Shown here: positions 52,550-55,442 of the stretch, piece by piece
Layout of the letters: every line of letters starts with the position of its first letter
Numbering within the stretch: position 1 is the stretch's first letter
NCBI RefSeq assembly: GCF_003018235.1
Contig: NZ_CP027438.1
DNA from: Escherichia coli
Lineage (GTDB): Bacteria; Pseudomonadota; Gammaproteobacteria; Enterobacterales; Enterobacteriaceae
DNA: 64,000 nucleotides
Direction: 5' to 3' (one strand)
Position numbers and translations under genes: made by a program
The notes under the pieces: generated by a model
What the model saw: the letters and a program-made list of their open reading frames with translations, nothing else
What the model was told of the DNA's origin: nothing
Databases searched by the model: none

Positions 52550-53320
52550 TGTAGTGTCTCGGTAATTCAGGACACCTCGAAATCCTGTTAATATTAAAAC
52601 AGTGAAAATGAGGTGATGCATGATCAAAACTCGTCGGACTAAACGTACCTTTTCCCCGGAGTTCAGGCTTGAAGCTATCGAACAGGTGGTTAAATACCGG
52701 CGTGATGTCAGAGAAGTCGCGCTGGCACTTGAGCTCAACCCTGACCATTTGCATAAATGGATACGGTTGTATAAGCAGGAACTTCAGGGTATTGAGCCCG
52801 CTGGTAATGCTATTACCCCTGAACAACGAGAAATTCAGCAGATTAAAGCGCAGATAAAGCGCCTTGAGGTGGAAAAAGAAATACTAAAGCAGGCTGCCGT
52901 GCTGATGAGCGAAATCCCCGGGAAGCTGTCGCGCTAATCACACAGCTGAAAGCAAAGTGGCCAGTGCGGGTTCTTTGTCATTTATTCGGTATTCACCGTA
53001 GCGTTTATTACGCGCAGGTGAAGCGTCCTGTTAATGTGCAAAGAATTGAATTACGAAGTCGGGTGAGGGCTTTCCATGCTCTCAGTCGTGGCGCAGCAGG
53101 TAGCCGGGAAATCAGTCAGATGTTGCGCCAGAGTGGCGTTGATGCAGGCCGGTAGCTGGCACGACGACTGATGCGGAAATGCGGGCTGACAAGTCGAGAG
53201 CCGGTTAAACATCACTACCGGGTAAACGAAGACAAAAGTCCTCCCTTGCCAAATTTACTGAACCGGCAATTTAACCCCGCCACACCAAACCGCGTCTGGT
53301 GCGGCGACATCAGTTTTATT
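52550..53320 (+). mobile_element. IS-X (IS3 family) copy B, 5' part, interrupted by an IS200-like insertion; continues 55196..55442
   Basis: Left end TGTAGTGTCTCGGTAATTCAGGACACC; OrfA 52620..52937 (105 aa); OrfB pieces 52964..53155 and 53171..53320 match copy C until the insertion point. Confidence 0.75.
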
Positions 53321-55195
53321 GTTATCCCTAAACCACCTCCTAGGGAGGTGGTGATTGAACCTGTAAGGCTATAGCCTGAAAAATGCCCATGTCGGAATAT
53401 CTCTGCTTACTCACCACAGTAAAAGGAGACAAACTGACATGGGGCTTTACAGAAGTTCATCACATGTATATTGGCGTTGCAAATATCACATAGTCTGGAC
53501 GCCAAAGTACCGCTTTAGGAGCCTTGATCTTACCCACCAATAGTGGACACAGGACTAAGTGAGTAAACTCTCAACCAGAGGTGACTCATGACAAAACCAG
53601 TATCAATCAGCAAGAAGCCCCGTAAACAACATACGCCTGAATTTCGTAACGAAGCCCTGAAACTCGCTGAACGCATCGGTGTGGCCGCCGCAGCCCGTGA
53701 ACTCAGCCTGTATGAATCTCAGCTTTATGCCTGGCGCAGTAAACAGCAGCAACAAATGAGTTCGTCAGAGCGCGAAAGCGAACTGGCCGCTGAAAATGTC
53801 CGCCTTAAACGACAACTGGCGGAGCAGGCTGAGGAACTGGCCATCCTCCAAAAGGCCGCGACATACTTCGCGAAGCGCCTGAAATGAAGTATGTCTTCAT
53901 CGAAAATCATCGGGCAGAGTTCAGCATCAAAGCGATGTGTCGTGTACTTCGGGTTGCCCGCAGCGGCTGGTATGTCTGGCTCAGGCGTCGTCACCAGATG
54001 AGCCTGCGCCAACAGTTTCGGCTCACCTGCGATGCCGCTGTCCATAAGGCATTCTTTGAGGCAAAGCAGCGATACGGTGCTCCCCGCCTTGCTGACGAAC
54101 TGCCGGAGTTCAATATTAAAACCATTGCCGCCAGCCTGCGTCGTCAGGGGCTGCGGGCGAAAGCCAGCCGGAAGTTCAGCCCGGTCAGCTACCGTGCACA
54201 TGGCCTGCCCGTATTGGAGAATCTGCTGGAGCAGGACTTCAGCGCCAGTGGCCCGAACCAGAAGTGGGCGGGTGACATCACGTACTTGCGTACCGATGAG
54301 GGCTGGTTGTATCTCGCAGTAGTCATCGACCTGTGGTCACGCGCCGTCATTGGCTGGTCGATGTCACCGCGAATGACAGCACAACTGGCCTGTGATGCAC
54401 TGCAAATGGCGTTGTGGCGGAGAAGACGCCCGGAAAACGTCATTGTTCATACGGACCGTGGTGGTCAATACTGTTCAGGGGATTATCAGGCAATGCTGAA
54501 GCGACACAACCTGCGTGGCAGTATGAGTGCGAAAGGCTACTGTTATGACAATGCCTGTGTGGAAAGCTTCTTTCATTCGCTGAAGGTGGAATGTATCCAC
54601 GGGGAACGCTTTAGCAGCCGGGAAATAATGCGGGCAACGGTGTTTAATTATATCGAGAGTGATTACAATCGCTGGCGTCGTCACAGTGCCTGTGGCGGTC
54701 TCAGCCCGGAACAATTTGAAAACCATAATCTCGCTTAGGGCCGTGTCCACATTACGTGGGTAGGATCACCTGAGGGATAAATTGGGCAAGGAGCTGTACA
54801 GAACCATCTATATTCTTTGCGGAATAAAAGATTGCGAGGTTCTGGAGTTAAGTGTACAGCCAGATCATGTGCATCTTGTCGTAATAGTGCCGCCAAAAAT
54901 CTCAATATCTACTCTGATGGGGCATCTGAAAGGTCGCAGTGCAATCAGACTCTACAATCGATTCCCGCATATCAGGAAGAAGTTATGGGGAAACCATTTT
55001 TGGTCGCGGGGTTACTTTGTTGATACGGTAGGGGTGAACGAAGAAATTATCAGACGATATGTGAGGCATCAGGAAAAGATGGAACAAACACATGAACAGC
55101 AGATGGAGTTGCTAGAGTAAAAAACGGAATATGACATTCGCCCCCTTATAGGGGGCATTCTGAAAAGTCACCTCCTCAGGAGGTGGTCTTTTACT
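53321..55195 (+). mobile_element. IS200/IS605-family element (about 628 bp of own sequence) carrying an IS3 insertion; tnpA 53439..55120 interrupted
   Basis: Subterminal hairpins CCACCTCCTAGGGAGGTGG (left) and CACCTCCTCAGGAGGTG (right); Y1-transposase ORF MGLYRSSSHVYWRCKYHIVWTPKYRFRSL | LRDKLGKELYR...PDHVHLVVIVPPKISISTLMGHLKGRSAIRLYNRF...WSRGYFVDTVG split exactly at the IS3 insertion; inserted 3' of TTATT in IS-X OrfB. Confidence 0.7.
53525..54768 (+). mobile_element. IS3 copy 1 with 3-bp target duplication CCT
   Basis: Ends TGATCTTACCCACCAATAGTGGACAC ... CGTGTCCACATTACGTGGGTAGGATCA; OrfA 53588..53887 (99 aa), OrfB 53884..54738 (284 aa); CCT at 53522-53524 and 54769-54771. Confidence 0.9.
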
Positions 55196-55442
55196 CGCCT
55201 GCAGGACAAATGGTGTTATCTCGCGCTCGTTGCTGATTTATATTCACGGCGGATTATCGGTTTCAGCCCTCTAATTAACCGCTGATGCTGAGTTGGTGTG
55301 CAGGGCTTTGCGTAATGCACTGGAAACACGACCGCGTGATGGCCGCCAGCTGTTTCATTCAGATCAAGGTGTTCAGTATAAAAGCAATAAATACAGAAAG
55401 TTACTCTGGCGTTATGGGGTAATGCAAAGTATGAGTCGCAGA

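Follow-up and report, generated by a model that had tools for sequence, protein, structure and literature searches.

Which insertion sequence (IS) entered which, and in what order, is the question raised by nucleotides 52,550 to 55,442 of a 64,000-nt stretch of Escherichia coli contig NZ_CP027438.1, here called the window. The original prediction, made from the letters alone, had described this region as IS3 inside an IS200-like element inside an unnamed element, IS-X, itself truncated by IS100. We read the junctions from the list of open reading frames (ORFs), from a self-BLAST of the window, and directly from the sequence. The region is a pile-up on a virulence plasmid, in which IS-X contains a 628-bp IS200-group element, this element contains ISEc16, and IS100 splits the outermost IS-X. 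Very probably, it was built by successive transposon insertions on a bfp-carrying plasmid of the enteropathogenic E. coli adherence factor (EAF) type, followed by two homologous-recombination events.

Nested insertions within IS-X

Reading the sequence at every junction confirmed the predicted coordinates to the base. The junctions and duplications likewise support a nest of three levels, built in the order IS-X, IS200-group element, IS3-family element. The parts of the nest and the second copies of its elements are as follows:

52550..53320, plus strand: left arm (bp 1-771) of IS-X copy A, starting with the left inverted repeat TGTAGTG; orfA (52620-52937) is intact, and orfB has a TAG stop at 53153.
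53321..53524, plus strand: left part of the IS200-group element, with a hairpin at 53332-53352 (CCACCTCCTAGGGAGGTGG) and tnpA codons 1-29; its last 3 bp, CCT, are the ISEc16 target.
53525..54768, plus strand: ISEc16 copy 1, complete, 1244 bp, with orfA at 53588-53887, orfB at 53884-54738, ends TGATC...GATCA, and CCT at 53522-53524 and 54769-54771.
54769..55195, plus strand: right part of the IS200-group element, comprising the second CCT, the remaining tnpA codons (stop at 55118-55120), and two hairpins, with ...GGTGGTCTTTTACT as its right end.
55196..55442, plus strand: middle arm (bp 772-1018) of IS-X copy A; its last 5 bp, GCAGA, are one half of the IS100 target duplication.
58447..59703, minus strand: full-length second IS-X copy, 1257 bp, a pseudogene without target duplication and the putative partner in homogenization of the left arm.
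59754..60997, minus strand: ISEc16 copy 2, 50 bp from the second IS-X copy, with a CTT duplication (AAG on the plus strand at 59751-59753 and 60998-61000).

In copy A, orfB of IS-X breaks off after ...ATCAGTTTTATT at 53320 and picks up at 55196 (CGCCTGCAGGACAAATGG...), with an insert of 1875 bp (53321-55195) between the two parts. The uninterrupted IS-X copy at 58447-59703 reads ATCAGTTTTATT/CGCCTGCAG without a break, that is ATCAGTTTTATTCGCCTGCAG, so the insert neither duplicates nor deletes target bases. This copy runs ...GTTTTATT/CGCCTG... continuously, and the same bases flank the insert in copy A, where the IS-X::IS200 junction is GACATCAGTTTTATTGTTATCCC. Hairpins near the insert ends have folding energies of –9.5 kcal/mol (left, z –3.2) and –17.7 kcal/mol (right, z –4.9), and 0/200 shuffles fold as well.

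When the 1244-bp inner element and one CCT are taken out, what remains is a 628-bp element whose tnpA site reads CGCTTTAGGAGCCTGAGGGAT without interruption and which has a 144-amino-acid (aa) ORF (...TPKYRFRSLRDKLGKELYR...; ...KYRFRSLRDKLGKELYR...), bearing out the predicted CCT duplication and restoration of the frame. This ORF matches Pfam Y1_Tnp at 136 bits (cut-off 23; profile positions 2-121 of 121) and NCBIfam transpos_IS200 at 150.7 bits (cut-off 55; positions 1-126 of 126), and its sequence contains the HVH motif (PDHVHLVV) and a C-terminal tyrosine (RRYVRHQ). The reconstructed element is ~98% identical, over its full length and with no gap at the junction, to intact 628-632-bp copies on other E. 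coli chromosomes and on large E. coli and Salmonella plasmids. The reconstruction thus represents a genuine, complete element.

Six independent intact copies carry TTATT (5/6) or TAATT (1/6) as the left flank, usually just after a terminator-like hairpin and T-run, and all six end on the right in CTTTTACT. Together with the junctions and the folding, these outside copies uphold the IS200-family behavior that had been proposed, namely a TTATT target without duplication and a hairpin close to each end. Y1 transposases of the IS200/IS605 family insert single-stranded DNA by "peel and paste", 3' of a short target and without duplication, and their elements have hairpins near both ends. The 628-bp element has the features of the IS200 group, namely a Y1 transposase, no terminal inverted repeats, end hairpins, and insertion without duplication 3' of a short sequence, and as a member of this family it would move as single-stranded DNA. 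It looks active and appears to target sites just past terminators.

Matches to the 628-bp element also occur at 9 places on the chromosome of E. coli CUPF09, and an identical TnpA is present in several hosts. All of the copies inspected lie immediately after TTATT or TAATT following a GC-rich hairpin.

The innermost element had been called IS3, but its sequence identifies it as ISEc16. It is 99.4% identical over 1244/1244 bp to the element named ISEc16 by the Prokaryotic Genome Annotation Pipeline (PGAP), versus 81.6% to the 1258-bp IS3 of K-12. Under the ISfinder rule, an isoform has at least 95% nucleotide identity to the named element; at 81.6%, the inner element is thus not an IS3 isoform. 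Its orfA matches HTH_Tnp_1, its orfB matches NCBIfam transpos_IS3 (322.9 bits) and Pfam rve (101 bits), and the two genes lie in the 0 and –1 frames, overlapping at ATGA. Nucleotide alignment of the two window copies gave 100% identity, and each has a clean duplication (CCT and CTT), in agreement with what had been predicted for the pair. The chance of two matching 3-bp flanks is ~2.4e-4. IS3-family elements generate 3-bp duplications while the donor copy stays in place, and IS100 generates 5-bp duplications. The junctions of the nest are consistent with the known behavior of each IS family.

The outer element, IS-X, reads as an ISKpn37-type IS3-family relic and not as a functional isoform. 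It is 97.1% identical, full length, to the PGAP-named ISKpn37, with matching ends (TGTAGTG/CACTACA), and its orfA matches Pfam HTH_Tnp_1. The stop and frameshifts in orfB are common to both window copies, so the IS200 insertion is not the sole lesion that inactivates orfB. Reference copies of ISKpn37 annotated as intact, at 97% identity, are found on Klebsiella, Citrobacter, and Raoultella plasmids; the other E. coli copies inspected (5/5) are annotated as frameshifted and/or with an internal stop. This suggests that the IS-X/ISKpn37 lineage is extinct or decaying in E. coli. The TAG stop was considered as a conserved feature of all IS-X copies and rejected, being confined to the two window copies, with TGG in five other E. 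coli copies.

Target duplications are absent at both window copies of IS-X, the flanks being GAC/CCT for copy A and TAT/AAA for the full copy. IS-X copies elsewhere have duplications of 3-4 bp (CTG, GAT, GAAC). A swap of flanks between the two copies by crossover was rejected, as GAC/CCT and TAT/AAA do not pair and neither do the flanks of two partial copies.

A third IS-X (ISKpn37-like) fragment lies at 27239-27606. It breaks off abruptly after the first 368 bp, which match the other two copies at ~96% identity. In E. coli 720632, the nesting is the other way round, with a copy of IS-X lying within an IS200/IS605 tnpA.

IS100 splits IS-X and bounds an inversion

Three further features concern the two IS100 copies and the right end of IS-X:

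9755..9994, minus strand: right arm (bp 1014-1253) of IS-X copy A, with the second GCAGA at 9990-9994 and the right inverted repeat ...CACTACA, set apart by the inversion.
9995..11948, plus strand: IS100 copy 1, 1954 bp, with flanks TCTGC/IS100/AAATT, reciprocal to those of copy 2.
55443..57397, minus strand: IS100 copy 2, 1955 bp, with flanks, in IS100 orientation, AAATT/IS100/TCTGC and an extra homopolymer base that frameshifts istB.

IS100 was identified by its two products (IstA, transpos_IS21, 319 bits; IstB, 402 bits). The sole difference between the copies is one extra base at 56136-56141 (T6 vs T5, plus strand). It splits istB of copy 2 into ORFs of 58 aa and 212 aa and may reflect either an error of sequencing or a genuine inactivating mutation.

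According to the original prediction, IS100 had truncated IS-X. The missing 240-bp tail is nevertheless present in the window at 9755-9994, inverted and abutting IS100 copy 1, where the self-BLAST matches it to 58447-58687 of the full copy at 95%. The tail and the middle arm have exactly 5 bp in common: ...GAGTCGCAGA closes the middle arm at 55442, GCAGAGAAAATTTCC opens the tail on the reverse strand, and GCAGA occurs once in the intact copy. An overlap found in both pieces and only once in the intact copy is the 5-bp target duplication of IS100. What had looked like truncation is a simple insertion with GCAGA duplication, and the tail stands at 9755-9994 owing to an inversion.

The inversion is read from the flanks of IS100. 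Copy 1 has TCTGC/AAATT and copy 2 has AAATT/TCTGC, and this reciprocal exchange means that the DNA between the copies is inverted. The chance of such reciprocal 5-bp flanks is ~1e-6. The inverted segment of ~26-27 kb carries the bfp-like operon. Exact 5-bp duplications accompany all of the independent IS100 insertions compared (3/3; two in the window and one in the plasmid described below), and the insertion of IS100 into IS-X with GCAGA duplication stands whichever orientation is true.

A sister plasmid with the same nest

In searches of PLSDB and 5,426 complete E. coli genomes, one record only shares this structure: NZ_CP076711.1, plasmid unnamed2 (69 kb) of E. coli O158:H23 CFIAFB20140388, hereafter the sister plasmid (coordinates prefixed P). 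The IS-X[IS200-group[ISEc16]] nest occupies P 14908-19994, at the same locus and with 99.8-100% identity. The nest is thus already in the public record, there annotated by PGAP merely as a row of partial pseudogenes. Literature searches on ISEc16 and on the IS structure of EAF plasmids turned up no work on this particular nest. Its presence in both plasmids places the three-level nest before their split. The backbones are alike in their bfp-like pilus operon, IncF replicons, and ccdAB.

The sister plasmid differs in having no IS100 at the GCAGA or AAATT sites, no ISEc16 copy 2, and no inversion. Its IS-X is continuous over a single GCAGA (P 19755-19759), with the middle and right arms colinear. 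A single AAATT (P ~45933-45937) marks the other empty IS100 site, and a single CTT is found where the window has ISEc16 copy 2. Each of these empty sites confirms the duplication at the corresponding window insertion. With respect to the remaining plasmid DNA, the window has P 19755-45937 in the opposite orientation. The inversion is confined to the window lineage, as are ISEc16 copy 2 and the two IS100 insertions of the window. The only IS100 of the sister plasmid lies inside the nested ISEc16, with a GCTGC duplication, and forms a four-level nest.

The sites of ISEc16 copy 2 and of both IS100 copies are empty in the sister plasmid; the empty IS200-like and IS-X sites that had been proposed as a check were not found in PLSDB, the complete E. 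coli genomes, the metagenome contigs, or the GTDB representative genomes. The proposal that the IS3-family element is the most recently active fits the absence of ISEc16 copy 2 from the sister plasmid, but both window IS100 insertions are absent there as well. As the sister plasmid lacks the window IS100 copies and has a different one of its own, IS100 has been active at least as recently as ISEc16.

The sister plasmid further differs by an extra IS200C and by a 3.2-kb deletion in the traM region. The 709-bp IS200C, at P 47027-47735, stands right after a terminator T-run (ending in CCCTTTTCTTTTT); the corresponding window site, ~13043, is uninterrupted, making this a lineage-specific event, once more at a position directly following a terminator hairpin. 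The deleted 3.2 kb corresponds to 34389-37623 of the window, which holds the traM N-terminus, an ORF resembling the lytic-transglycosylase "gene X", and leading-region ORFs, and traM is annotated as partial in the sister plasmid. The 368-bp IS-X fragment is also present there, at P 61913-62280.

Mosaic structure of IS-X copy A

The reconstituted copy A was compared with the full IS-X copy. Mismatches number 1/771 to the left of the IS200 insertion versus 21/486 to the right (Fisher p = 2e-8), corresponding to identities of 99.87% and 95.7%, and the self-BLAST likewise aligned the left arm with 59703-58933 of the full copy at 99.87%. The first mismatch on the right is 30 bp beyond the IS200 site. 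Relative to the ISKpn37 reference, the left arms share ~20 derived differences; the right arms share ~5, and each has 10-11 private ones. The right arms of the two window copies differ as much as unrelated copies from other genomes do. The same mosaic pattern is seen in the sister plasmid. The simplest reading would be gene conversion between the two IS-X copies, with a tract that ended at the insert, where homology stops. This conversion probably predates the divergence of the two plasmids.

Order of events and alternatives

The junctions, duplications, empty sites, and inversion described above can be arranged in the following history. An ISKpn37-like IS3-family copy, IS-X, would already have been in place when the 628-bp IS200-group element entered its orfB, 3' of TTTTATT, in peel-and-paste style. 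ISEc16 would then have entered codon 29 of the IS200-group tnpA, duplicating CCT. The left 771 bp of IS-X would next have been homogenized with the other IS-X by gene conversion, before the window and sister plasmids split; the converted tract would end at the IS200 insertion, the end of homology. In the window lineage, a second, identical ISEc16 would have been placed 50 bp from the other IS-X, duplicating CTT, probably ahead of the IS100 insertions and the inversion. IS100 would then have entered the right part of IS-X (GCAGA) as well as another site ~26 kb away (AAATT), in opposite orientations, and recombination between the two IS100 copies would have inverted the intervening DNA, including the bfp operon. 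The outcome would be an IS-X seemingly cut at 55442, with its last 240 bp at 9755-9994.

This history departs from the purely sequential insertion originally proposed. The nesting order stands, but the history probably also includes homologous recombination, through the IS100 inversion and the homogenization of the IS-X left arm. Recombination between pre-existing copies, named in that proposal as what would overturn it, would thus have occurred at the level of IS100 but leaves the rest of the nest unaffected.

Several points weigh against the history as a whole. No PLSDB record covers at least 80% of a reconstructed 1175-bp query representing IS-X with an uninterrupted IS200-group element. 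Nothing fitting IS-X::IS200 without ISEc16 appeared among the top-ranked matches of a 3.4-kb query against complete E. coli genomes. A reconstructed 2053-bp query for IS-X at this locus without IS200, or for the joined flanks, returned only IS-X/ISKpn37 copies elsewhere and no other plasmid with the flanks. Neither IS-X::IS200 junction had an exact match in the metagenome contigs or the GTDB species-representative genomes (0 hits in 4/4 scans). With no intermediates found in these collections, the case for the first three steps is made by the logic of the nesting and the cleanness of the junctions, and not by ancestral forms. Copy A is missing a target duplication, so its arrival or its later history was not a simple insertion. 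The reciprocal-duplication pattern fits recombination between two insertions and one-step intramolecular transposition alike. Finally, assemblies are notoriously ambiguous about the orientation of DNA that lies between 2-kb inverted repeats, and the inversion would hold only as far as the assembly does.

One-step transposition is the alternative that fares best, though we consider it unlikely. A single IS100, for example at AAATT, would have transposed replicatively "in trans" into GCAGA, creating the second copy, the inversion, and the reciprocal flanks at once. Intramolecular replicative transposition "in trans" has been proposed for IS-bounded inversions with reciprocally exchanged duplications that involve IS26 and Tn4401 (PMC4471558), and the flank pattern here is exactly as that model predicts. 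In addition, neither IS100 site is occupied in the sister plasmid, and the window copies, which differ by one homopolymer base and are 99.90% and 99.85% identical to the IS100 of the sister plasmid, seem mutually closer. The identical product would also result if IS100 had inserted twice in the ordinary way and RecA had then recombined the 1954-bp inverted repeats. IS21-family elements are described as non-replicative, with tandem or circular junction intermediates and not Shapiro-type replicative cointegrates. As the replicative mode is not the accepted one for this family, homologous recombination is more likely for IS100, and RecA-type recombination between the two inverted 1954-bp copies is the route that we favor.

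Less probable still is that the inversion reflects an assembly choice or a flip-flop polymorphism, in which case IS100 would really lie in an unbroken IS-X, or the two orientations would exist side by side. The 1954-bp inverted repeats (99.95% identity) are longer than short reads, and they can recombine reversibly; against this, the copies were assembled with one distinguishing base, and nothing else in the window hints at misassembly.

A third alternative concerns the mosaic and is, in our view, very unlikely. Copy A would be a hybrid formed by crossover inside the insert, after two IS-X copies had each received an IS200-group element at the same TTATT, so that the left arm of one was joined to the right arm of the other; this would take the place of gene conversion with the intact copy. 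Such a crossover would account for the sharp shift in identity at the insertion and for the missing target duplication of copy A, and the insertion of IS200-group elements is site-specific. It requires, however, two independent insertions at one site, and a second IS-X::IS200 junction is absent from the window, the sister plasmid, and every collection searched. The bearer of the identical left arm is, moreover, an uninterrupted IS-X on the same plasmid, which fits gene conversion halted by heterology.

The last alternative, truncation of IS-X by IS100 with loss of its distal part (e.g., by IS100-mediated adjacent deletion), has next to no probability left: within 52550-57397 IS-X does stop at IS100, with unrelated DNA from 57398 onward, but it is refuted by the missing 240 bp at 9755-9994 against IS100 copy 1, by the overlap of the pieces by exactly GCAGA, and by the contiguity of the two pieces in the sister plasmid.

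Plasmid context and significance

A bfp-like type IV pilus operon begins at 61294, and its first part occupies 61294-64000. Its pilin is a diverged homologue of bundlin (PDB 1ZWT, E = 1.4e-37), and a bundlin homologue opening a bfp-like operon marks the plasmid as of the EAF type. Two small paralogous proteins are encoded at 50074-50481 (plus strand) and 51554-51919 (minus strand). Both have signal peptides and a shared C-x-L...EC-x-x-x-I-x-x-GYA-x-GV motif, and neither has a Pfam match. The two genes, in opposite orientations, flank a frameshifted transposase fragment (50620-51290).

Taken together, the nest, the duplications, and the four empty sites of the sister plasmid provide a relative timeline of IS activity on a bfp (EAF-type) virulence plasmid, with ISEc16 and IS100 both mobile after the two plasmids diverged. 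Their value is mainly as a worked example and as lineage markers. They also offer a caution: an IS seemingly truncated by another IS may instead be split, and a deletion should be inferred only once other copies have been checked for reciprocal flanks. If gene conversion is the true source of the IS-X mosaic, it would be a natural example of a conversion tract halted exactly by an inserted element. A one-step origin of the inversion, if true, would be natural evidence that an IS21-family element can make IS26-style replicative inversions.

Comparison with known systems

The components and processes found here are all of known kinds, and no new mechanism or element class is involved. The 628-bp element resembles the IS200 group (IS200, IS200C, IS1541) in its single Y1 HUH gene, its end hairpins, and its lack of terminal repeats and duplication. 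It differs in length (628 bp vs ~709 bp), in having no name from PGAP, and in its target, TTATT/TAATT, usually following a terminator-like hairpin. Compared with IS200C in particular, its TnpA is only 42% identical, and there is no useful nucleotide similarity. ISEc16 shows no material difference from its named copies, with which it shares the orfA/orfB frames, the TG...CA ends, and the 3-bp duplication. IS-X has the ends and the full-length identity of ISKpn37 noted above, but both window copies are pseudogenes, with a +1 T common to both, the TAG stop, and further indels. The inversion is like those of IS26 and Tn4401 in that inverse IS copies each abut half of a split element, with one flank from each duplication (PMC4471558). 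It differs from them in its element, IS100 of the IS21 family, whose accepted mechanism does not include replicative intramolecular transposition.

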